From a virus (Duplodnaviria; Caudoviricetes), in the IMG/VR virus record IMGVR_UViG_3300025016_000004: a stretch of DNA of 64,000 nt; one strand, given 5' to 3'. Shown here in pieces: positions 1 through 34,930 of this stretch. The notes beneath the pieces were generated by a model, which ran no database searches, was not told where the DNA came from, and worked only from the letters and a program-made list of their open reading frames with translations. The position numbers and the translations under genes are program-made. Numbering within the stretch: the stretch's first letter is position 1; each line of letters starts with the position of its first letter.

Positions 1-670
1 ACTTGTAAGTGTATTTATTATTATGAACAAGATTAGCTTTTATTATGAATTCTGTGTTTGATAAAGTTAATTTAACTTTTGTAGATTCAATACCACAACT
101 AGGGCAGCCTTTACCTCTAATATGATTATAAGGTTGTTGTTTAAATTCACCATGAATTGGACATATAATTGTAACTTTTGTTTTTGAATCTACATAATTA
201 ACTTTGATGTAATCATATTTATTACCATGGGTATTTTCAGATTTAATTAAAAAATCAGTTAATGTTTCTTTTATATTTTTACGTTCTAAATGACATTTTT
301 GACAACCCGATTTATAATGACCATTTGGTAATTGTTCAAAATCACCATGTTTGGGGCATGTTATTATTAATTTATTTTCAGAACCGTTATACACTGTTTT
401 AGAATAATTATATTTATTACCATGAGTGTTTTTAGCTTTAATTAAAAACTCATCTAAATTAGTAACTTTACCACCACATAAAACACATTTTTTATAACCT
501 CTTAAATGTTCAATAGGTGTTTGTTTAAAATAAATTAAATGTTCATTACATAGGATATCTATTGGTGTTTGACTATCTAGGTAATTCATTTTTGAATAAT
601 CGAATTTATTTTTGAATTTATTTTTAACCTTTTCTAAAAATTTATCAACCTTTTTAATATTTTTTTTCAT
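1..670 (-). CDS. Putative free-standing homing endonuclease, N-terminal Zn-binding CPxHG repeat array (partial, runs off window start)
   Basis: Not in ORF track. Manual reverse-strand translation from ATG at 670 is open to base 1: MKKNIKKVDKFLEKVKNKF...ILCNEH...ITCPKHGDF...IICPIHGEFKQQPYNHIRGKGCPSC. Same repeat unit as ORF 33305-34930. Confidence 0.8.
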   Translation of the reverse strand, partial: MKKNIKKVDKFLEKVKNKFKNKFDYSKMNYLDSQTPIDILCNEHLIYFKQTPIEHLRGYKKCVLCGGKVTNLDEFLIKAKNTHGNKYNYSKTVYNGSENKLIITCPKHGDFEQLPNGHYKSGCQKCHLERKNIKETLTDFLIKSENTHGNKYDYIKVNYVDSKTKVTIICPIHGEFKQQPYNHIRGKGCPSCGIESTKVKLTLSNTEFIIKANLVHNNKYTYK

Positions 671-23228: not shown

Positions 23229-25679
23229 ATGAGTGACATCAACAAGCAAGATGGTTTTGGATTTTTAGGAATTCCTTACCAAAGAAGACTTATAACCCAA
23301 TTAATCACAGACCATAAATTTGCTACAAATATAATGGGGATAGTAGACCCAAACTACTTCACAGATTTATATTTGAGAATTATAGCATCTGAAATAAAAA
23401 ATGCGTTTGAGACTGATGAAGTTATACCAGATATTGAAAGCTTAGAATTTAGGTTAAATGGTAGAAAAGATAATGAAACTACTAAACTATATATCAAAGC
23501 ATCAATAGCTGAAATTAAAGATGGTAACCTGAACGATTCAGAATATGTTCAGGATATGGCCATGAAATTTTGTAAACAACAAGAATTAAAGAAATCAGTT
23601 CATGAAATTCAAGAAATAATAGATAAAGGTGATTTAGATTCATATGATGAATGTGAAGAAATATTAAAAAGAGCGTTAGAAGTCGGAAGTGATAAAGATT
23701 CTGGAATTGATGTTTTTTTTAATATTGAGGCAGTTCTAGAGGATGATTTTAGAAAACCAATACCTACAGGTATTGCTGGTTTAGATGATAAAATGGGTGG
23801 TGGTTTATCAAAAGGTGAATTGGGTGTTATATTAGCACCGTTTGGTGTTGGTAAAGCACAACCATTACATTCTAAAATATTAACACCTAATGGTTGGACT
23901 ACTATGGGTGAGATACAAGTTGGTGATGAAGTTATAAGTAGGGATGGTAAAGCGACTAAAGTCACTGGAGTGTTTCCACAAGGCGTTAGACCAATTTATG
24001 AGGTTAGATTTAATGATAATACTAAAACTTTATGTGATGCTGAACATTTATGGTCAGTTAATACAATCAATCAACGAAATAGAAAAACTAAAAAAAATGG
24101 TGTGATGGTTAAATTAGAACCTGATAATTCATTTAAAACTTTAAAAACTATTGATATGGTTGATAAAGTTAGGGTTTGGGGTAATAAGCGTTTAAATTAT
24201 AAAATACCAAATATCTTACCCGTAAATTTTAATAAAAATGAATTAATTATTAACCCATATTTATTAGGTGTTATATTAGGTGATGGATGTATAACTGAAC
24301 ATAATCAACCCCATATTACAACTAAAGATGTTGAATTAATAGATGAAATTGAAAAATATCATAATAATATTAATATTACTGAGCAAACACGAATGTTTGA
24401 AGTTTACAAAAATGGGAAATTTGAAAATGTAGAAAGAACCTTAACAAAAATTTCTTTATTAGGTATTAAAGATGATTTAAGTAGTTTAAAATTATATGGT
24501 TGTAATTCAGAAACTAAATTTATCCCACATAACTATCTATATTCTTCAGTTGAAGATAGAGTTTCGTTATTACAAGGATTAGTAGATACTGATGGTTATA
24601 TTGGTAACAATAGAATTGAGATTTGTACCGTATCAAAAATGATGTCGGAACAAATCAAAGAATTAGTATTGTCATTAGGTGGTACTTGTAATATAGGTGT
24701 AAAAATTGGTAGTTATTTGAAAGAGGGGGTTAAAATTAGATGTAAAAAAGCATATCGAGTTTATTTTAGTTTACCAACACAAATAAAATTTAATCCATGT
24801 AGACTTGAAAGGAAGTTGAATAATTTAAGTAAAAGGTCTAAATATGCTAATAATAAATTTATTACTAGTATTGAATATTCACATGAGGAAGAAGCTCAAT
24901 GTATTATGGTTGATAATCCAGAACATTTATATATAACTGATGATTATATAGTAACACATAACACAACCATGGTCACCAAAATAGCCAACGAAGCTTTTAA
25001 TCATGGATATAATGTTCTTCAAATATTTTTTGAAGATATTCCTAAAGTGATTCAAAGAAAACATTTATCATGTTGGACTGGGATAGCTCAAAACGATTTA
25101 CCATTAAAAGCAAACAGACCCATCATTGATGAAGTCATGAAAGAAAAAAATGATGGTAAAGGGTATTTAGAATTGAAAAAATTTCCTAGTGATGGAACAA
25201 CAATTCCTATGATTAAAAATTATATTAGAAAACTAGCAGCCGCTGGTAGAAAACCTGATGTAATTTTAATTGATTACATTGATTGTGTATCATCAACCAA
25301 ACATTACGATAAGGGATATGAGGCTGAAGGGCCAATTATGAGACAATTCGAATCATTATTGAGCGAATTTGATTTGGTTGGATGGACTGCAATTCAAGGT
25401 AATCGATGTGTTTCATTAGATACTATTATTGAAGATTCTAAACGTGGTAAAATTGAAATTAGAGATGTTAAGTTAGGGGATGAAATTTTAACTCATAAGG
25501 GTTACAAAAAAGTTACCCATATATTTCCTATTGCTAAGCAACCAGTTTATAAAATAAAATTAAAATCTGGTAAAACCATTAAAGTATCTAAAAAACATAA
25601 GTTCCCAACAAAAGATGGTGAAATGTTATCAATTGAAGATGGTTTAAAAGTTGGAAACATACTTTTAGGTAAAAAATAA
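23229..25679 (+). CDS. dnaB: Replicative helicase DnaB/gp41-like, N-terminal fragment (contiguous intein plus split-intein N half)
   Basis: Walker A APFGVGK|TT interrupted by an intein; Walker B ILIDYID; ends in a 90-aa IntN after TAIQGNR. Confidence 0.9.
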   Translation: MSDINKQDGFGFLGIPYQRRLITQLITDHKFATNIMGIVDPNYFTDLYLRIIASEIKNAFETDEVIPDIESLEFRLNGRKDNETTKLYIKASIAEIKDGNLNDSEYVQDMAMKFCKQQELKKSVHEIQEIIDKGDLDSYDECEEILKRALEVGSDKDSGIDVFFNIEAVLEDDFRKPIPTGIAGLDDKMGGGLSKGELGVILAPFGVGKAQPLHSKILTPNGWTTMGEIQVGDEVISRDGKATKVTGVFPQGVRPIYEVRFNDNTKTLCDAEHLWSVNTINQRNRKTKKNGVMVKLEPDNSFKTLKTIDMVDKVRVWGNKRLNYKIPNILPVNFNKNELIINPYLLGVILGDGCITEHNQPHITTKDVELIDEIEKYHNNINITEQTRMFEVYKNGKFENVERTLTKISLLGIKDDLSSLKLYGCNSETKFIPHNYLYSSVEDRVSLLQGLVDTDGYIGNNRIEICTVSKMMSEQIKELVLSLGGTCNIGVKIGSYLKEGVKIRCKKAYRVYFSLPTQIKFNPCRLERKLNNLSKRSKYANNKFITSIEYSHEEEAQCIMVDNPEHLYITDDYIVTHNTTMVTKIANEAFNHGYNVLQIFFEDIPKVIQRKHLSCWTGIAQNDLPLKANRPIIDEVMKEKNDGKGYLELKKFPSDGTTIPMIKNYIRKLAAAGRKPDVILIDYIDCVSSTKHYDKGYEAEGPIMRQFESLLSEFDLVGWTAIQGNRCVSLDTIIEDSKRGKIEIRDVKLGDEILTHKGYKKVTHIFPIAKQPVYKIKLKSGKTIKVSKKHKFPTKDGEMLSIEDGLKVGNILLGKK
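23856..24962 (+). mobile_element. Class 3 intein (369 aa) with LAGLIDADG endonuclease in the DnaB P-loop
   Basis: Starts AQPL (Ala1); block B CDAEHLW, block F AQCIMV, block G VTHN|T give the Trp-Cys-Thr triplet; LLGVILGDG and LQGLVDTDG motifs. Confidence 0.88.
25407..25676 (+). mobile_element. Split intein N half (DnaB), 90 aa
   Basis: Block A CVSLDT, block B VSKKHKFPT, ends GLKVGNILLGKK then stop. Confidence 0.88.
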
Positions 25680-25725
25680 TAATAATCTTTTTTGTATTGC
25701 ACTTAAACTTTTACATTATCGGTGA

Positions 25726-25732
25726 TATTTAT
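25726..25732 (+). promoter_or_regulatory. TATTTAT putative late-promoter motif
   Basis: 14 nt upstream of the endonuclease ATG 25747. Confidence 0.5.
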
Positions 25733-25746
25733 ATTAAAATATTATC

Positions 25747-26889
25747 ATGATTAAAATTGACGTAGAAAATGTAATTAATAGAAAAACCATAAAACCCCTT
25801 TATCTAAAAGGGGTTTTAACTCAAAGACATAAAAATGAAATAAATAATATTTGTGATGTATATAATAGTGTTACTATAAAAAATAGAATTAAAAATATAC
25901 ACGATTTTATAAAATATGATGTTGACGGTACAATCCCTTGGGTTAAAAGGTTGGAAATTATACAGAAAGAATTGAATAATGATATTGCTAGTAAGTATGC
26001 CTTAGAAATAAGATATGGTAAGTGTAATGTAGATAAAAAGAGGTTTGAATTGGGGGTTAAGTTTTCTCATACTTTGGAAAAGTATATTGAAAAATATGGT
26101 AAAATAATCGGTAATGAAAAGTATGATGAATATTTAAGAAAATCTAAAACACCTTGGGGTTTAAAAGGTTGTGTGGATAGATATGGTGAAATAGAAGGTA
26201 AAAAAAAATGGGTGGAAAGGTTAAATAAAAAAATAAACACTCAAAATGAAAGAAAAAAAATAAAACCATATAGGAATGGTAGGACATTGAATGAATATCA
26301 AAATAAATATGGTGTAAAACTTGGTTACTTTAAGTGGAAAAAAAGAAATGAAAAGCAGAGTTATAGATTCTCAAAAAAATATTATATAAATACTTATGGT
26401 AGTGAAAAAGGTAATATTAAATGGGTTGAGTATAAAAAAAGTATGGATAAAACTTCCTTAAAAAGTTTTATCAATAGGTATGGAGAAAAAGATGGGATTA
26501 ATAAATATGAATCTTATTTAAGTAAAATTAATGATAGTGGTGTTTTTTATAGTAAAAGTTCACAAAAGTTATTTTGGTTAATTTATAATCAATTAAGTGA
26601 CGATAAGAAAAAACTTTGTCGTTTTGCAAAATTAAATGGTGAAGAATATTTCATAGTAAATAAATTTGGTTTTAACAATATTTTAGTAGATTTTAAATGT
26701 GAGAATAAAATAATCGAATTTGATGGAGATTATTGGCATTTAAATAAAAAACAAATTGAAATTGATAAATTGAGGGATGAGTTTTTAACTTCTAAGGGTT
26801 ATCAGATTTTAAGGGTTAGAGATAGTGAATTTGAGGTTAATAAAGAAAAAGTAATTAAAGAATGTATAAAATTTATAAAAAATGAATAA
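25747..26889 (+). CDS. Free-standing Vsr/DUF559-like homing endonuclease between the DnaB split-intein halves
   Basis: [KR]YGxxxG repeats plus C-terminal VDFKCENKIIEFDGDYWH...DKLRDEFL...GYQILRV. Confidence 0.8.
   Translation: MIKIDVENVINRKTIKPLYLKGVLTQRHKNEINNICDVYNSVTIKNRIKNIHDFIKYDVDGTIPWVKRLEIIQKELNNDIASKYALEIRYGKCNVDKKRFELGVKFSHTLEKYIEKYGKIIGNEKYDEYLRKSKTPWGLKGCVDRYGEIEGKKKWVERLNKKINTQNERKKIKPYRNGRTLNEYQNKYGVKLGYFKWKKRNEKQSYRFSKKYYINTYGSEKGNIKWVEYKKSMDKTSLKSFINRYGEKDGINKYESYLSKINDSGVFYSKSSQKLFWLIYNQLSDDKKKLCRFAKLNGEEYFIVNKFGFNNILVDFKCENKIIEFDGDYWHLNKKQIEIDKLRDEFLTSKGYQILRVRDSEFEVNKEKVIKECIKFIKNE
25790..25818. promoter_or_regulatory. Perfect 12-bp hairpin inside the 5' end of the endonuclease ORF
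   Basis: TAAAACCCCTTT-ATCTA-AAAGGGGTTTTA. Confidence 0.5.
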
Positions 26890-27025
26890 AAATGAAATTA
26901 TGAATCTAGAGGGGTTTACTTTAGATGAAATAGAGAGTATTGACTTAATAGGTGAAGAAGATACCATAGATATAACTGTGGATGATACCCATATGTTTTT
27001 CGCTAATGATATATATACACATAAT
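26882..27025 (+). mobile_element. Split intein C half (DnaB), 48 aa
   Basis: Block F EDTIDITV, block G FFANDIYTHN, +1 Ser. Confidence 0.88.
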
Positions 27026-27397
27026 TCATCGATTAATGCTGAAAATGTTGATTCAAGTATGATTGGTGGGTCAATCAAAAAAGGTCAAATTGGGCATTTT
27101 ATTGTTTCAATAGCTAAAGATTTAGACCAAAAAGAGGGTGGTAGAGCTAATATGGCGATATTAAAATCTAGGTTTGGTGTAGATGGAATTATTTTTACTG
27201 ATGTAGTATTTGATAACTCCAAAATACAAATAACTATTGATGAAGGTAAAGTATTAAAAGCTTCAGAAATGGATGACTATAAGAATGAACAAGTTAAAGG
27301 AAGAATGAAAGATTTGTTCGAACAATATGAAAAAACTAAAGAAGTTTTAATCACTTCTGAAGTTGATAAAAAAGAAAAAACAGAGGATGTTAACTAA
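26882..27397 (+). CDS. dnaB: DnaB C-terminal fragment with split-intein C half
   Basis: 48-aa IntC ending IYTHN|S, then helicase SSINAE...GGSIKKGQIG...ILKSRFG. Confidence 0.9.
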   Translation: MNKNEIMNLEGFTLDEIESIDLIGEEDTIDITVDDTHMFFANDIYTHNSSINAENVDSSMIGGSIKKGQIGHFIVSIAKDLDQKEGGRANMAILKSRFGVDGIIFTDVVFDNSKIQITIDEGKVLKASEMDDYKNEQVKGRMKDLFEQYEKTKEVLITSEVDKKEKTEDVN

Positions 27398-30300
27398 AAA
27401 AGAAAAAAGAGTTAAATATTTTAGCGGTGATGATTTAGCCGCAACGGTTTGGAATGATAAATACAAACTAGGGGATGAAGGTTCGGAAATTGAAGAATCT
27501 ACGCCAGCTGATATGCACTTAAGAATGGCAAAAGAATTTGCTAGAGTTGATGGTAAATATCAAGTAAAAGAATTAAAAAAATTATTGGATAATCCAGAAA
27601 TTAAACTTAGTGATTATGGATTTAATCGTAAAGATTTAACAGTTAAAGAAATATACGCTTTATTGGAGAATTTTGGTAAAATAGTTCCACAAGGTTCTGT
27701 TATGTCACAGTTAGGTAATGACGAACAAATTGGTTCATTATCTAATTGTTTTGTTATAGGACAACCTGAAGATTCTTATGGTGGAATTATGCTTAAAGAC
27801 CAAGAATTGGTTCAATTGATGAAACGTAGAGGTGGTGTAGGTATCGATATATCGTCATTAAGACCTAGTGAAACTCCAACATCAAATGCGGCCAAGAGTT
27901 CAACTGGTGCAGTTTCTTTTATGGAAAGATTTAGTAACTCAACTAGAGAAGTTGCTCAAAATGGTCGTAGAGGTGCACTTATGCTTTCAATTGATGTAAG
28001 ACATCCAGATGTAGCTGATTTCGTTAAGATTAAGAATGATAGAACCAAAGTTACTGGTGCTAACATATCAGTTTCATTAAGAGATGATTTCATGAAAGCG
28101 GTTAAAGCTGATGGGGATTATATTTTAAGATATCCAATTAATGAAGAAATACACCCTGAATGGGATGGATTGAATGAATATGAATATAATAAATTATATA
28201 CGCTAGAAGATGCTAATAACGTTAAAACTTGGGTTAAAAAAATTAAAGCTAAAGAATTATATGACCTTATAATTGAGAATGCTTGGGACAACGCTGAACC
28301 TGGTCAGATTTTCATTGATAGACACTGGGATTATAGCCCTGATGGTGTTTATCCAGAATATAGAGGTATAACTACAAACCCTTCATTGCGTCATGATACA
28401 TTAATACAAACTGATTTAGGGTTATACCCTATAAAGGAATTAGCTGAAAGTGATGGGTTAACAATCGTTAAAAATATTAAAAATGAATGGCAAGTTGGTA
28501 AAGTGTTTTTATCTGGTAAAGGTAAAGAATTGTATAAAATTACTTTTACTAATGGATATGAAGTATATTGCACTGCTGAGCATAAATGGCCGATATTGAA
28601 TTCACAGAAAAATATTTTTAATAAAGTGAATGGTTCGGTTTTGAAAAAAAGGACTGATGAGTTAATGTTTGGACACCCAAAACTTGGTGGTGATAGAACA
28701 CATTTAGAGTTTAACCCTAATTATGAGGGTAATGTGAGTTGTAAATTAACAAAAAATGATGGATTTTTAAGTGGTTATTGGTTAGGTGATGGACACACTT
28801 CGATAACAACTGAGGGAGTTAAACAATACGGATTTATAGTATCTGATGATGAATTATTAGATTGTGGCGATAAATTACTTAATATAATCGGTGAAAATAA
28901 AATAAAAAACACTAACAATAATTTTAATAGAGACCATGAAAGTGAAGCATACTCACTATATATTAGCGAGATTGGATTCAGAGAGTATTGTGATAGATTA
29001 AAATTAGGGTATGATAAAATTAATGGGATACCCGAAACAGTTTTCAAAAGTGGTAATAAATTTATAAAAGGGTTTATAGATGGATTGTTTTCTGCTGATG
29101 GCTCTGTGTGGGCTAATGAAGATTTAGTACATAGTAGAGTTACATTAACAAGTAGTAGATTTAACATAGTAAAAGACGTTCAAAAATTATTAAATTTATT
29201 TGGAATTTCTAGTAATATACAAGAGCGTAAAGATAAGTTAAATGATAAAACGTTTACTGGGTATAATTTAGTTATTAGTGGGGTACACAGTAGGAAATTT
29301 GCAACGTGTTTTACTTTAACTTCTAAAGATAAACAAGATAAATTAGATACTATATTAAATTATGAAAACACATATAAAGATAATAGAGAGTATTTAATTA
29401 TTAAAAATGTTGAACCAACTGGTATTTTTGAGGATGTGTATGATATAACAGTATTTGATGATACACACACTTTTAAAGGAGAGTTTGGTACGACTGGTAA
29501 TTGTGGTGAAATATTTATGCAACCATATGATGCTTGTAGATTAATGGCATTGAATTTTTATTCATTTGTAGATAACCCATTTACTAAAAACGCTAGAGTC
29601 AATTATCAAGCTGTATATGAAGCGGCCTACGAGCAACAAAGATTAGCTGATGATTTAGTTGATTTAGAATTAGAAAAAATTGATAGAATTATCGCTAAGG
29701 TTAAAAATGACCCTGAAAGCGAAATGACAAAAGCTGTTGAATTACAACTTTGGGAAAATATCCGTAAAGTTGCAGCTTCTGGTAGAAGAACTGGATGTGG
29801 TTTTACTGGGTTAGGTGATATGATTGCGGCCACTGGTGTTGATTATGATTCTGAAGAAGGGTTAGATATCATTGATAAGGTTATGAGGGCTAAAATGAGC
29901 GGTGAGTTAGACTGTACTATCGATTTAGCAGCTCTTAGAGGTCATTTCGATGGATATAACAACGAATTAGAGTATTCTGATGGTGTAGGCACCAATGAGT
30001 TCTTTAAGATGCTTAAAACTGAGTTTAAAGAGCAATATGATAGAATGATTATTTATGGAAGAAGAAACGTATCATTCTCAACGGTTGCACCTACAGGTTG
30101 CTTAGTTAAAGAAACTAAACTAAAAACAAATCGAGGTATCATTGAATTGAAAGATTTATTTTTAATTAATGGTATTGATATAGATAAATTAAAAAATGAA
30201 AAAAATATTTGGTTTGATATTGAAGAAGAAATAATGGTTTATGATATTAATGGTGGTGAACATAAAATAAATAAATTATATTGGAATGGTTATAGTAAAA

Positions 30301-30443
30301 CTAAAAAAATTAAATTGGGTAATAATGAAAGTGTTGAATCTAGTACCGAACATAAGTGGTTGGTTAGGGTTTCTGAAACTGAGGCTAAATGGGTTAGAGC
30401 TGACGAATTGAAAATTTCTGATAAAATTATTAAAATAAATTAA
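27363..30443 (+). CDS. nrdJ: Class II (B12-dependent) ribonucleotide reductase, N-terminal fragment (contiguous intein plus split-intein N half)
   Basis: SLSNCFV, RRGGVG, QNGRRGALM, EPG, TNP|CGE, RRTGCG, TVAPTG motifs. Alternative start at 27387. Confidence 0.9.
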   Translation: MIKKKKQRMLTKKEKRVKYFSGDDLAATVWNDKYKLGDEGSEIEESTPADMHLRMAKEFARVDGKYQVKELKKLLDNPEIKLSDYGFNRKDLTVKEIYALLENFGKIVPQGSVMSQLGNDEQIGSLSNCFVIGQPEDSYGGIMLKDQELVQLMKRRGGVGIDISSLRPSETPTSNAAKSSTGAVSFMERFSNSTREVAQNGRRGALMLSIDVRHPDVADFVKIKNDRTKVTGANISVSLRDDFMKAVKADGDYILRYPINEEIHPEWDGLNEYEYNKLYTLEDANNVKTWVKKIKAKELYDLIIENAWDNAEPGQIFIDRHWDYSPDGVYPEYRGITTNPSLRHDTLIQTDLGLYPIKELAESDGLTIVKNIKNEWQVGKVFLSGKGKELYKITFTNGYEVYCTAEHKWPILNSQKNIFNKVNGSVLKKRTDELMFGHPKLGGDRTHLEFNPNYEGNVSCKLTKNDGFLSGYWLGDGHTSITTEGVKQYGFIVSDDELLDCGDKLLNIIGENKIKNTNNNFNRDHESEAYSLYISEIGFREYCDRLKLGYDKINGIPETVFKSGNKFIKGFIDGLFSADGSVWANEDLVHSRVTLTSSRFNIVKDVQKLLNLFGISSNIQERKDKLNDKTFTGYNLVISGVHSRKFATCFTLTSKDKQDKLDTILNYENTYKDNREYLIIKNVEPTGIFEDVYDITVFDDTHTFKGEFGTTGNCGEIFMQPYDACRLMALNFYSFVDNPFTKNARVNYQAVYEAAYEQQRLADDLVDLELEKIDRIIAKVKNDPESEMTKAVELQLWENIRKVAASGRRTGCGFTGLGDMIAATGVDYDSEEGLDIIDKVMRAKMSGELDCTIDLAALRGHFDGYNNELEYSDGVGTNEFFKMLKTEFKEQYDRMIIYGRRNVSFSTVAPTGCLVKETKLKTNRGIIELKDLFLINGIDIDKLKNEKNIWFDIEEEIMVYDINGGEHKINKLYWNGYSKTKKIKLGNNESVESSTEHKWLVRVSETEAKWVRADELKISDKIIKIN
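28383..29501 (+). mobile_element. Intein (373 aa) with LAGLIDADG endonuclease at the NrdJ catalytic Cys
   Basis: TNP|SLRHDT...YCTAEHKW...LSGYWLGDG...IDGLFSADG...DVYDITV...TTGN|CGE. Confidence 0.88.
30099..30440 (+). mobile_element. Split intein N half (NrdJ), 114 aa
   Basis: APTG|CLVKET...SSTEHKW...WVRADELKISDKI then stop. Confidence 0.88.
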
Positions 30444-30487
30444 CTAAAACGCCCTTTGTTTTATACTTATTACAAAGGGCGTTAGTT
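30442..30487 (+). promoter_or_regulatory. Hairpin over the endonuclease initiation region with a TACTTAT motif in its loop
   Basis: Perfect 12-bp stem AACGCCCTTTGT/ACAAAGGGCGTT (30448-59/30472-83), extendable to the base before ATG 30488. Confidence 0.6.
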
Positions 30488-31600
30488 ATGAAAATAAAAT
30501 ATGTAGAATATTATAATGAATTGGTTAGTAAATATGGTGAAGAAGATGGGTTAAAAAAATATAAATCATTTTTGAGGTCATCAACATTAGAAACTTATAT
30601 TATTAAATTTGGTGAAAAGCGTGGTACAGATAAATTCAATAATAAGAAAAAGTCAGGAATATCACTAGAAAAAATGATTGAGAAATATGGTGAAAAAGAC
30701 GGTACTAATAGATATAATAATTGGTTATCTAAAATTAGGCAAGATTTACCAAATTTTATTAAGAGATATGGTGAAAAAGACGGATTAAAAAAATATAATG
30801 AATTTAAAGATAATTGTATTGTTAAAACAAAAATAAAAGAAAACCCCAACTCAAAATATAATAATAGGTTACATAATACTAGATATGAATTTTTTTTAGA
30901 AGAAAATAATGGTGATATTAATAAAGCTAAAAAACAATTAATTAAAAGACAAAGAACGAGTGATTTAAAATCTTTCATTAAAAAACACGGCTTAATAGAG
31001 GGTGAAAAAAAATATAAATTAGCTAATAAAAAAAAATCTAATAATATTAAGAATTTTATTAGATTATATGGTGATGTTGAAGGTAATAGACGATATTTTA
31101 ATTATATTAAAAAACTAAAATATATTCATAGTGAAAAATATTATTTAGATAAGTATGGTGAAATAGAAGGTAAAGTTAGGTGGGTAGAATTGATTAATAA
31201 AAAAACTAATAATTTTATTAATGGTCAATCTAAAATTGGTGATGAATTTTGTAATAATTTATTTAATGAAATAAAAAAAGATGTTGATGATAAATATTAT
31301 TTTTCTGAAAATGAATATAAATTCTTTATTCATGATGAAGAATATAAAATAATTCAGCCAGATTTTTTAATTAAAGAAAGTAAAATAGTTGTTGAATTTT
31401 ATGGTGATTACTGGCATAGAAATCCAGAAATATATAATGATGATATTTCAAAAATAATTAGGGAAAAAGATGAAGAAAGGATAAAAAAAATAGAATCTTT
31501 AGGGTATATCATATATATTATATGGGAAAAGGAATATCGTTTAAATAAAATTGGAGTAATAAAAAATTTAAGTAATAAAATAATTAATAAAATAAAATAA
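30488..31600 (+). CDS. Free-standing Vsr/DUF559-like homing endonuclease between the NrdJ split-intein halves
   Basis: About 7 [KR]YGxxxG repeats plus PDFLIKESKIVVEFYGDYWH...KDEERIK...GY...IWE. Confidence 0.8.
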   Translation: MKIKYVEYYNELVSKYGEEDGLKKYKSFLRSSTLETYIIKFGEKRGTDKFNNKKKSGISLEKMIEKYGEKDGTNRYNNWLSKIRQDLPNFIKRYGEKDGLKKYNEFKDNCIVKTKIKENPNSKYNNRLHNTRYEFFLEENNGDINKAKKQLIKRQRTSDLKSFIKKHGLIEGEKKYKLANKKKSNNIKNFIRLYGDVEGNRRYFNYIKKLKYIHSEKYYLDKYGEIEGKVRWVELINKKTNNFINGQSKIGDEFCNNLFNEIKKDVDDKYYFSENEYKFFIHDEEYKIIQPDFLIKESKIVVEFYGDYWHRNPEIYNDDISKIIREKDEERIKKIESLGYIIYIIWEKEYRLNKIGVIKNLSNKIINKIK

Positions 31601-31752
31601 TGAAGGAAAATAACGAAATAATTGATATTAGTAATGTTAATTACAGTGAATGTGAAATATTAGATATTGTAGATGGATATGATTATACTATGGATTTTGA
31701 GGTGGGTGATACACATTACTATACATTAGAAAATGGTTTAGTGAGTCATAAT
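31600..31752 (+). mobile_element. Split intein C half (NrdJ), 51 aa
   Basis: DYTMDFEV...YTLENGLVSHN, +1 Ser. Confidence 0.88.
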
Positions 31753-32811
31753 AGTGTGAGTATTCTTACTCAAACTACTTCGGGGTTAGAGCCAGTATTT
31801 TCCGTATTCCCTTATTTAAGACGTAAAAAGTTAAACCCTAACGATAAAAACGCTAGAGTAGATTTTACTGATGATAATGGTGACCAATGGCAAGAGTTTT
31901 CAGTAACTCATAAACCGCTTATGGATTATATCAAAATCAATAAATTGGATGAAGCAATCACTGAATTAAATGATAAAATGAATAAAACCAAAGCTGAAGA
32001 AGAAGATTTAGTTTCTAAAGTGGTGATGTTCATAACCAATAACCCTAATCCGTATAGCAATAGTAGTGCTAATGACATTGATTGGATTGAAAGGGTTAAA
32101 ATTCAATCAATAATTCAGAAATATACAACCCATTCAATTAGTTCAACAATTAATTTACCTACTGATGTAACTAAAGAGGAAGTTTCTGAAATTTACATCA
32201 AAGCTTGGGATATGAATTTGAAGGGTGTTACTATTTATCGTGATGGTTGTAGAACTGGAGTTTTAGTTACTAAAACTGACCCTAAAGAAGATGAAATTGT
32301 TTATACAGACGCACCAAAAAGACCTGAAAAATTAGAATGTGAAATTTATCATTCTAAAGTAAAAGGTAAAATTTATACAGTAATAATTGGATTATTAAAA
32401 GGTAAAGTTTATGAAGTATTTGCTAGTGATGAAGAAATTGGTAAAGGTTATACTGAAGCTTATAATAAGAAAATTAAATCTGGTCATTATAGTCTTATAA
32501 CTAGAGGTACTGAAGAAATGATTTATGATAATATCGGTAGCAATATGACTGATGAAGAAGAGATGTTCACAAGAGGGTTATCAGCTGCATTAAGACATGG
32601 TATGCATGTTAAATTCGCTGTTGAAATGTGTAACAATGGGAAGGGTGATATCACTTCATTTACAAAGGTTATTGCTAGAACTCTTAAGAGATATATTGAG
32701 GATGGAACTTCTTCATCTAAAAAATGTCTTGATTGCGGTGCAGAAAATAGTATTATTTATGAAGAAGGTTGTCAGCGATGTAAAATCTGTGGTAGTTCTA
32801 AATGTGGTTAA
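31600..32811 (+). CDS. nrdJ: NrdJ C-terminal fragment with split-intein C half; TSCPD-like domain and C-terminal Zn ribbon
   Basis: 51-aa IntC ending LVSHN|S, then SGLEPVF, THSISSTINLP, LKGVTIYRDGCR, CLDCG...EGCQRCKICGSSKC. Confidence 0.9.
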   Translation: MKENNEIIDISNVNYSECEILDIVDGYDYTMDFEVGDTHYYTLENGLVSHNSVSILTQTTSGLEPVFSVFPYLRRKKLNPNDKNARVDFTDDNGDQWQEFSVTHKPLMDYIKINKLDEAITELNDKMNKTKAEEEDLVSKVVMFITNNPNPYSNSSANDIDWIERVKIQSIIQKYTTHSISSTINLPTDVTKEEVSEIYIKAWDMNLKGVTIYRDGCRTGVLVTKTDPKEDEIVYTDAPKRPEKLECEIYHSKVKGKIYTVIIGLLKGKVYEVFASDEEIGKGYTEAYNKKIKSGHYSLITRGTEEMIYDNIGSNMTDEEEMFTRGLSAALRHGMHVKFAVEMCNNGKGDITSFTKVIARTLKRYIEDGTSSSKKCLDCGAENSIIYEEGCQRCKICGSSKCG

Positions 32812-32934: not shown

Positions 32935-33318
32935 ATGGCAAATAAGAGTATTAATATTAACTTCCCCTTTAAAGATAGTCCAAAAGGGTTCTTTTTAGAT
33001 TTAAATACCGTTGATAATAAAGCAATCAAGGCTGATTTATTACATTTAATTCTAACCAATAAGGGTGAACGTTTATATTTACCTGATTTTGGAACCAATT
33101 TAAGAAAATATTTATTTAATCCTTATGATGGAATTACTGAAAGTGAGATAAAATCTGAAATTAGTGAAGCCATTAAAAAATACATTCCTAATTTGAAAGT
33201 AAATTCAATAACTTTCGAAGAAGCACCTCAAAGTCAATATGGTGCTGTAGTTAAATTAGAGTACACTATCACTGAAGATGTATTCGAAACTCGTGACATG
33301 ATTATTATTCAGTTATAA
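32935..33318 (+). CDS. Baseplate wedge subunit (T4 gp25-like)
   Basis: LILTNKGERLYLPDFGTNLRKYLF motif; 127 aa. Confidence 0.9.
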   Translation: MANKSININFPFKDSPKGFFLDLNTVDNKAIKADLLHLILTNKGERLYLPDFGTNLRKYLFNPYDGITESEIKSEISEAIKKYIPNLKVNSITFEEAPQSQYGAVVKLEYTITEDVFETRDMIIIQL

Positions 33319-34930
33319 TTTCATATTTTAAATTACCAGAATCGTAAATCCTATATAAACCTAATTTTTGTGTAATCTCATTTTCTGTTAAGTTTGAATC
33401 ATAACCCATTTTAACTAATTTATGTTTTTGATATTTAAATCTATTCTCTCTTATTTTTAAAACATCATTAAATAATGTGTAATTAGGTAACGAAGCATGT
33501 TTAAATTCAAACCCTAAATTTTTATATAAATTACCAGAACTCCACCTTCTATCAGCATAGGATATAATTGATTTGGGTTTATAAGTTTTAACAAAGTATT
33601 TAAATAACTTACTAGCACCACCAATGACTGTAGTATCTAATTTATTACAAAATCTAATTAATTCCCACTCAGAGTTACCAAATATTTTTCTTTTACCAAA
33701 AGTCATTAGACTAATTAACTCATCATCATAATATAACCCTAATTTAATTTTAGAATTAACATTACCTTGAATATGGTTATTATCTAAAAATATCTTACTT
33801 GTTTTACTATCTATTAATTTTACAATAGTGTTTCTACCATAAATTCTATTCTTACTTAATCCCAATAAATTTTTCAATCTTGATTTAACAATTTCTTTTT
33901 TATAAACCCATTCATCTTCGAATAGGTGAATTAATTGAATACCTTTAGATTCACATAATTTAGTTTTATTTAAGTGATATTTTTTATCTTTATATATTTC
34001 TGAATGCCAATACAACCCATTAATTTCAATACCTATTTTTTTAGATGGTATGTAAATATCTAATTCTTTACCACCCAATACAGACCTATCATTTTTAATA
34101 AAATTTAAATCAATTGATTTAATAAAATCAATAACTTCCATTTCAATTATTGATGTTGAATTGGTACACTTTTTACAACCATAGTTATTTATATGGTATA
34201 AGGGTGTTTCTTTTACTAATCCGTGAGTTTTACAAATAATATCAACTTCAGTGGTCAAATCAATATATTTTACTTTAGAATAATCATATTTATTACCATG
34301 AATTTTTTTAGCTTTAGTTATAAATGATTTAGTGTCAAATACTCTACCTAAACAACTTAAACAACCTTGACCTTTTGATAAATGATTATTCGGTAATATA
34401 TCAAACTCACCATGTTTAGGGCAAATAATTGTTATATTAGTTTTAGTGTCAACATATTTTACTTTAGAATAATCATATCTATCACCATGAATTTTTTTAG
34501 CTTTAGTTATAAAAATTTTGGTATCTAATTTAGCAGTTCCACCACAATATTTACACCCTTTACCTTTTATATGATTATCAGGTATTTGTTGAAATTCACC
34601 ATGTTTAGGACAAATTATTATAACTTTATTCTTATTTCCAGAGTATTTTACTTTAGAATAATTATATCTATCACCATGAATTTTTTTAGATTCATTTATA
34701 AATTCTTCATTTGTTTTTAATTGAGATAACCCAAATTCTATATTTTTACATTTTGGACAACCTTGATTTCTATTTAAATGGTGCACTGGGGTTTTATAAA
34801 ATTCACCATGTTTAGGGCAAACTATAATAACTTTATCATTATTTCTAACATACACTACTTTAGAATAATCATATCTATCACCATGAATTTTTTTAGATTC
34901 ATTTATAAATTTTTTAGTTGTTTTTTTCAT
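33305..34930 (-). CDS. Putative free-standing homing endonuclease (Zn CPxHG repeats plus Hef-like PD-(D/E)xK domain)
   Basis: The track strand label is wrong: CAT at 34928-34930 and TTA at 33305-33307 place the protein on the - strand. Four C-x-x-HG repeats; ELDIYIP...IEINGLYWH...HLFEDEW. Confidence 0.8.
   Translation of the reverse strand: MKKTTKKFINESKKIHGDRYDYSKVVYVRNNDKVIIVCPKHGEFYKTPVHHLNRNQGCPKCKNIEFGLSQLKTNEEFINESKKIHGDRYNYSKVKYSGNKNKVIIICPKHGEFQQIPDNHIKGKGCKYCGGTAKLDTKIFITKAKKIHGDRYDYSKVKYVDTKTNITIICPKHGEFDILPNNHLSKGQGCLSCLGRVFDTKSFITKAKKIHGNKYDYSKVKYIDLTTEVDIICKTHGLVKETPLYHINNYGCKKCTNSTSIIEMEVIDFIKSIDLNFIKNDRSVLGGKELDIYIPSKKIGIEINGLYWHSEIYKDKKYHLNKTKLCESKGIQLIHLFEDEWVYKKEIVKSRLKNLLGLSKNRIYGRNTIVKLIDSKTSKIFLDNNHIQGNVNSKIKLGLYYDDELISLMTFGKRKIFGNSEWELIRFCNKLDTTVIGGASKLFKYFVKTYKPKSIISYADRRWSSGNLYKNLGFEFKHASLPNYTLFNDVLKIRENRFKYQKHKLVKMGYDSNLTENEITQKLGLYRIYDSGNLKYEIITE

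Follow-up and report, generated by a model that had tools for sequence, protein, structure and literature searches.

Two adjacent genes of a large, uncultured T4-like phage from groundwater, coding for a gp41/DnaB-type helicase and for the class II ribonucleotide reductase (RNR) NrdJ, are both fractured, and with a probability of roughly 80% we interpret this helicase-NrdJ module as an accumulation of selfish inteins and homing endonucleases, in which the protein halves would be trans-spliced and the elements belong to independently mobile lineages. The module occupies positions 23229-32811 of a 64,000-nucleotide stretch (IMG/VR record IMGVR_UViG_3300025016_000004, the whole of which we call the window; GC content ~29%) from a genome of roughly 185-195 kb, and it comprises six open reading frames (ORFs), all on the + strand.

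According to this interpretation, inteins would have entered the helicase-NrdJ replication module on four occasions. Two of these inteins would later have been invaded by paralogous genes for Vsr-like (EDxHD) nucleases, breaking each host gene in two. A LAGLIDADG intein in each N-fragment would then splice in cis, in the helicase via the block F Cys of a class 3 intein and in NrdJ via Ser1 and Cys+1. Subsequently, the N-terminal half of each split intein (IntN) would splice in trans with its own C-terminal half (IntC), whereby the helicase would regain QGNR-SS and NrdJ would regain APTG-SV. What would keep the two pairs apart is their membership of different, independently mobile intein lineages and not mutual tuning. 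Spread of the cassettes would be driven by the nuclease genes, which are probably silenced in long transcripts by 5' hairpins. The features of the locus are as follows (aa, amino acids; nt, nucleotides; a slash within a motif marks a splice junction):

23229-25679, +: helicase-N, 816 aa, in the order extein 1, cis intein, extein 2, IntN
23856-24962, +: helicase cis intein, class 3, 369 aa, with LAGLIDADG domain, in the P-loop GVGK/TT
25407-25676, +: helicase IntN, 90 aa, Cys1, net charge +10, at a gp41-8-type site NR/S
25747-26889, +: nuclease gene 1, 380 aa, free-standing Vsr-like (EDxHD) homing endonuclease
26882-27397, +: helicase-C ORF, IntC followed by the C-extein
26882-27025, +: helicase IntC, 48 aa, net charge -12, ending THN/S
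27026-27397, +: helicase C-extein, 123 aa
27387-30443, +: NrdJ-N, in the order extein 1, cis intein, extein 2, IntN
28383-29501, +: NrdJ cis intein, 373 aa, LAGLIDADG, at TNP/CGE, immediately before the thiyl-radical Cys
30099-30440, +: NrdJ IntN, 114 aa, Cys1, net charge +1, after APTG
30441-30488, +: hairpin filling the 44-nt spacer, its 3' arm touching the ATG of nuclease gene 2
30488-31600, +: nuclease gene 2, 370 aa, free-standing Vsr-like homing endonuclease, paralogue of gene 1
31600-32811, +: NrdJ-C ORF, IntC followed by the C-extein
31600-31752, +: NrdJ IntC, 51 aa, net charge -11, ending SHN/S
31753-32811, +: NrdJ C-extein, 352 aa, with a C-terminal zinc-ribbon-like Cys cluster

Both genes have the build of fractured genes. 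Their halves lie on the same strand, IntN ends the first ORF and IntC begins the second, and the conserved intein blocks are divided in both pairs such that A and B reside in IntN and F and G in IntC. Spacers of 67 nt and 44 nt precede nuclease genes 1 and 2, respectively, and at both loci the ATG of the C-half overlaps the stop codon of the nuclease gene before it. Helicase-C overlaps NrdJ-N by 11 nt if the latter starts with the ATG at 27387, or by 35 nt with the TTG at 27363 that is given by the ORF tool; the ATG is the likelier start, being the equivalent of the start in relatives. Removal of the four inteins leaves a helicase of 480 aa and a NrdJ of 891 aa, both of normal size. Pfam analysis of helicase-N identifies intein-splicing, Hint and LAGLIDADG domains together with a weak match to DnaB_C (E 8e-4), a domain (PF03796) that is found in the helicases of intact relatives. 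NrdJ-N contains the RNR barrel (profile positions 1-390) along with LAGLIDADG and intein-splicing domains, and NrdJ-C supplies the remainder of the barrel (profile positions 390-523). A scan for sigma-70 promoters returned fewer sites than in shuffled sequences and is uninformative for this phage.

The original prediction, made from the letters of the window, had described two back-to-back fractured genes with four inteins and two trans-splicing pairs, and the ORFs, Pfam domains and boundaries agree with it. The overlap of the helicase and NrdJ loci is likewise real. Both IntN begin with Cys and both IntC are acidic and end in HN/Ser, as had been proposed, with 12 Asp or Glu against a single Lys in the IntC of NrdJ. 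Each N-fragment also carries a second, cis intein of different chemistry, class 3 in the helicase and Ser1...GN/C in NrdJ.

The cis intein of the helicase (borders GVGK/AQPL...VTHN/TT) bears the signature of class 3 inteins, namely Ala1, CDAEHLW, AQCIMV and VTHN/T, with a Trp two residues past the block B His. Position 1 is without a nucleophile and the class 3 triplet of Trp (B:12), Cys (F:4) and Thr (G:5) is present. Five phage alleles retain this signature, and the best solved relatives are the class 3 DnaBi1 inteins of mycobacteria (6rix, 6riy and 6bs8, E 2e-16). DnaB of M. smegmatis carries two inteins, the class 3 DnaBi1 in the P-loop and the class 1 DnaBi2 in the H4 motif (PMC6195587). 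The phage helicase shares with it the combination of a class 3 P-loop intein and a later class 1 intein in one protein as well as the sequence kinship with DnaBi1. In contrast to the mycobacterial protein, the phage P-loop intein retains its LAGLIDADG domain and the second intein is split by a free-standing nuclease gene, so that the helicase depends on a trans reaction in addition to a cis reaction. A 29.5-kb contig that equals the phage in depth in three runs matches only the ends of the class 3 intein (23872-23915 and 24924-24965), with 993 differing letters between the two matches. It may carry a further allele of the class 3 intein, residing in a different gene of this genome or in a gene of a phage that occurs alongside.

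The split intein of the helicase starts at QGNR/CVSLDT and ends with ...YTHN/SS. Its IntN matches the solved gp41-1 intein (6qaz, E 2e-14), while the split junction QGNR/SSI fits the gp41-8 type (LNR/SAY), unlike that of gp41-1 (SGY/SSS). Identity to gp41-8 is roughly 55-60%, an approximate value from a by-eye alignment to a machine-read supplement sequence. The gp41-8 locus (Dassa et al. 2009, PMC2677866) has in common with the window a gp41-type helicase, the order of IntN, same-strand Vsr-like nuclease and IntC, an NR/S-type junction and the combination of a basic IntN with an acidic IntC. It differs in that the N-fragment in the window additionally contains the class 3 LAGLIDADG P-loop intein, the next gene is fractured as well, and the phage context (~185-195 kb) is known.

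The NrdJ cis intein (borders TNP/SLRHD...TTGN/CGE) has the features of class 1, with Ser1, a block B Thr-x-x-His (CTAEH), a terminal Asn and a +1 Cys (GN/C). Its penultimate residue is Gly and not His. The lineage to which it belongs, with 236 cluster representatives matching at E<=1e-10, occupies the NP/C site of RNRs, and of the ~130 representatives that were aligned end to end, nearly all start with NP/S and finish with TGN/C. Since Gly is thus near-universal in the aligned family, the missing penultimate His is a trait of the lineage and not a sign of decay.

The NrdJ split intein begins at APTG/CLVKET and ends with ...VSHN/SV, giving the junction APTG/SVS, and its IntN contains a lysine-rich strand ahead of block B. 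An identity with NrdJ-1 was considered and rejected on the grounds that both insertion site and charge polarity differ. NrdJ-1 sits at NPC/SEI, one residue past the thiyl-radical Cys, and its IntN is acidic and its IntC basic, whereas the split intein in the window, of opposite polarity, lies ~200 extein residues downstream at APTG/S. The TNP/C position is instead filled by a contiguous intein of a different lineage. A sequence search of the PDB with the NrdJ IntN gave chance-level matches only, and a scan of IMG/VR with it gave no confirmed relative; relatives of the cassette were reached via the NrdJ C-fragment instead. In the literature searched we found no description of a split intein at the RNR site APTG/S.

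One or more of the inteins might be dead, in which case the genes would be decaying or the halves would assemble non-covalently, as does the nuclease-split NrdA of phage Aeh1. Non-covalent rescue of a split nrdA is thus known, the penultimate His that is usual in inteins is missing from the NrdJ cis intein, and the short intein halves score below the Pfam cut-off. However, the nucleophiles, the block B His and the terminal Asn are all present and conserved among diverged alleles, and a Gly-Asn end is normal for a large family. All six ORFs are open, and the phage is abundant, with an invariant sequence across many samples. We consider dead inteins very unlikely. From the intact, conserved catalytic residues we infer that the halves would be joined by protein trans-splicing.

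The stability of the locus in nature is further supported by sequencing data. More than 20 aquifer-metagenome runs and two hot-springs-metagenome runs contain 99-100% of the sampled words. In the three runs examined closely, the full 9.6 kb lies inside single contigs (14.4-15.8 kb) with 0-2 differences at a depth of ~18-78, and NrdJ-C is identical in independent assemblies by JGI and ENA. Although the sequence is of metagenomic source, which could raise the suspicion of an assembly artefact or a chimeric contig, the single-contig span in the three runs and the agreement of the JGI and ENA assemblies leave this explanation a next to negligible probability. A megablast search with the region and a tblastn search with helicase-C against the phage collection gave no match.

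The two genes between the intein halves encode related nucleases. Nuclease gene 1 matches PF18741 (40.3 bits) and DUF559 (37.4 bits), both above the cut-off, belongs to phrog_22677 and has I-Bth0305I as its best solved match (3r3p, E 0.0011). Nuclease gene 2 is assigned to phrog_22677 as well (E 1.9e-23); here PF18741 remains below the cut-off and Vsr structures match weakly, and the motifs PDF...VEFYGDYWH...KDEE are seen. The two proteins are 26% identical over about 300 aa and have KYG repeats in common. With I-Bth0305I and the EDxHD family (PMC3239194) they share the two-domain build, the C-terminal Vsr-like domain, in which Glu, His and Asp of nuclease 1 can be aligned, and the location between intein halves. 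They differ from I-Bth0305I in that the N-terminal half consists of KYG-type repeats instead of NUMOD motifs, and in that at least three paralogues are present within one genome. The N-terminal halves (26079-26530 and 30517-31205) are composed of repeated KYGE-x-DG-x-KY units (families D8, D12 and D16); these repeats have no Pfam match and may form a DNA-binding repeat module.

The spacer ahead of nuclease gene 2 folds into a hairpin with a dG of -23.2 kcal/mol (z -6.9), and none of 200 shuffles is equally stable. A spacer hairpin was likewise drawn by Dassa et al. 2009 (PMC2677866). The putative cleavage of cassette-free alleles by the nucleases, and the homing that it would drive, are indirectly supported by the patchy distribution of the cassette among relatives.

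In the closest relatives by extein identity (63-86%; contigs L084, L085, L011 and L012) the helicase is uninterrupted. They keep the helicase-NrdJ or helicase-RNR neighbourhood with other interruptions of NrdJ or RNR: in L084 and L085 NrdJ is broken by a different split intein at TNP/C, the site of the cis intein in the window, and in L011 a contiguous insert lies near residue 130. Because the closest relatives are without these helicase inteins and differ in the interruptions of NrdJ or RNR, the inteins were gained horizontally. Between the halves of the split NrdJ loci (L084:7866-11773 and L085:8437-11791), L085 has only a 51-aa ORF, and the ORF of L084, 255 aa long, belongs to no known family; the IntC of L084 is 45% identical to the helicase IntC of the window.

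The cassettes also occur independently of each other. Phage LR756500.1 (462 kb) also has the NrdJ cassette of IntN, nuclease and IntC at APTG/S or APTG/T, as do four other metagenome lineages, in one of which the cassette adjoins an intact DnaB. Compared to the window, IntN is 43-49%, the nuclease 35-43% and IntC 46-55% identical, with exteins that are only 40-50% identical. In LR756500.1 (L001:623-3981) and in L091:3437-4855 a 472-aa ORF for a family B DNA polymerase ends early just upstream of NrdJ, and the polymerase gene is possibly broken; in L001 the ORF after the short polymerase ORF is nuclease-like, 647 aa long, and contains about nine 'ERYGVE' repeats. At least 15 IMG/VR contigs carry the helicase cassette. 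The nuclease is missing from some of them, and such nuclease-free cassettes resemble gp41-7 of Dassa et al. 2009 (PMC2677866).

A survey of how often both fractures co-occur, as suggested in the original prediction, shows that the arrangement is not singular. Among eight distinct loci in which a split helicase is accompanied by a visible RNR gene, five have NrdA in several pieces, two in L003 and L004 and three in L005-7, L008 and L010. L005-7 and L010 also possess the class 3 P-loop intein and thus have four inteins in two neighbouring genes. The three-piece loci share with the window the same helicase split intein (IntN 61-73% identical) adjoining an RNR that is cut by split inteins. However, their RNR is the class I NrdA, nrdB intervenes between NrdA and the helicase, and their intein at the homologous site PTAS/S has the reverse charge polarity. 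The NrdA inteins at the site homologous to APTG/S (L003:9494-10597, L005:13735-14230 and L008:14496-15310) are 30-36% identical in IntN and have an acidic IntN and a basic IntC. In every locus with an intact helicase that was checked, the RNR large-subunit gene is in a single frame, a contrast that is confounded by relatedness. Judged from these sequence comparisons, the helicase-RNR module is an intein hot spot, a recurrent landing zone in one phage group.

We then compared the two split inteins of the window with each other. They are only 24% identical in IntN over 41 aa and 34% in IntC. Both combine an acidic IntC with a lysine-rich strand in IntN and thus have the same basic-IntN/acidic-IntC polarity; because the polarity is identical, charge alone cannot separate the two pairs. 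The same holds for gp41-1 and gp41-8, which share their polarity and yet cross-react by only a few per cent in vivo, and divergent split inteins, these two included, are already orthogonal in the laboratory. In a complex prediction with helicase IntN, NrdJ IntN and NrdJ IntC in one job, a control scored above the query, so that the result has no bearing on cognate or cross binding. Mutual orthogonality of the two pairs can be called a sound expectation from their divergence, and we see it as the default of unrelated mobile elements and not as the outcome of tuning.

The original prediction went further and regarded the pairs as naturally co-selected for orthogonality, and possibly as a post-translational timer for replication; the four splicing steps would then play the part of a timer or checkpoint. 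The overlap of the two genes, which are probably co-expressed, would be in line with this, as would the common charge polarity, which makes selection against chimeras conceivable, and the documented conditional splicing of the mycobacterial class 3 DnaB intein. Each allele, however, has the same polarity and motifs where the other is absent. The acidic NrdJ IntC is likewise found in L001, L086, L090 and L091, phages that have no fractured helicase, and the helicase allele is unchanged where the RNR is intact or arranged differently. Moreover, homologues of the NrdJ-site intein in NrdA have the reverse polarity in genomes with the same helicase intein, which leaves no consistent rule of pairing. 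The closest relatives manage without these inteins, and inteins this divergent are orthogonal by default. Thus, while orthogonality is a fair expectation at such low identity, the claim of co-selection is not supported, as the alleles look the same where they are solitary, and co-selection or a timer appears unlikely to us.

Some observations weigh against our interpretation of the module as a pile-up of independently mobile elements. With the same polarity in both pairs, a first electrostatic capture step would not discriminate between them, and the pairs may cross-react. The hairpin 5' of nuclease gene 1 in the helicase is not significant (z -1.0). As each C-half starts inside the stop region of a nuclease gene, its expression might be coupled to that of the nuclease in a way that the model does not explain. 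Finally, RNA run X24 contains five short contigs lying in both nuclease genes and in NrdJ, which may be DNA carry-over in the library and were not counted as evidence of expression.

A third fractured gene, for an SbcC/gp46-like ATPase, is located in the same genome ~41 kb downstream (L097:14609-18506). Exact-match scans for the end of the window in viral and metagenome contigs gave no match, and the extension beyond the window was made by protein look-ups; contig L097 is 100% identical to the last 4151 bases of the window. SbcC is split inside Walker A (ANQGGK/.../TTFS) by an atypically divided intein with an IntN of 29 aa and an IntC of 128 aa. SbcC-N ends with ...ANQGGK/CLRGDS, IntC ends with SHN/TT, and homology to SbcC starts from residue 129. 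Between the halves lies a 339-aa nuclease of phrog_22677. A 589-aa ORF of the same contig (L097:10001-12128) resembles an exonuclease at its N-terminus, continues into a LAGLIDADG/intein-like region and may be a further gene of this phage that bears an intein; just beyond it lies a 108-aa LAGLIDADG ORF on the opposite strand.

The module is flanked by genes for SSB, a UvsX-like recombinase and an exonuclease upstream and by baseplate genes (baseplate wedge) downstream. Directly after NrdJ-C lies a large, free-standing gene for an HNH homing endonuclease (33305-34930, - strand; phrog_559, E 1e-166) that contains repeats of 189 nt. A partial copy related to this gene is found at the start of the window (2-670, - strand).

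The fractured-gene layout as such is already known (Dassa et al. 2009, PMC2677866), and the locus described here is unusually dense but not unique. New are the tandem fracture, the pairing of a cis with a trans event in each polypeptide, the APTG/S split intein and the fact that a single genome has at least three fractured genes whose nucleases are paralogous. The inteins gp41-1, gp41-8, NrdJ-1 and IMPDH-1, which derive from the fractured-gene loci of 2009, are now standard tools for protein ligation, and orthogonal sets are in demand. The locus supplies the full genomic context for split inteins of this type. We give a slightly better than even chance that the co-resident split inteins of the helicase, NrdJ and SbcC work side by side; if they do not cross-react, specificity would reside outside the charge zipper and the phage would hold an orthogonal toolbox in one cytoplasm. 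The recurrent helicase-RNR landing zone also bears on the question of how homing endonucleases convert contiguous inteins into split ones.

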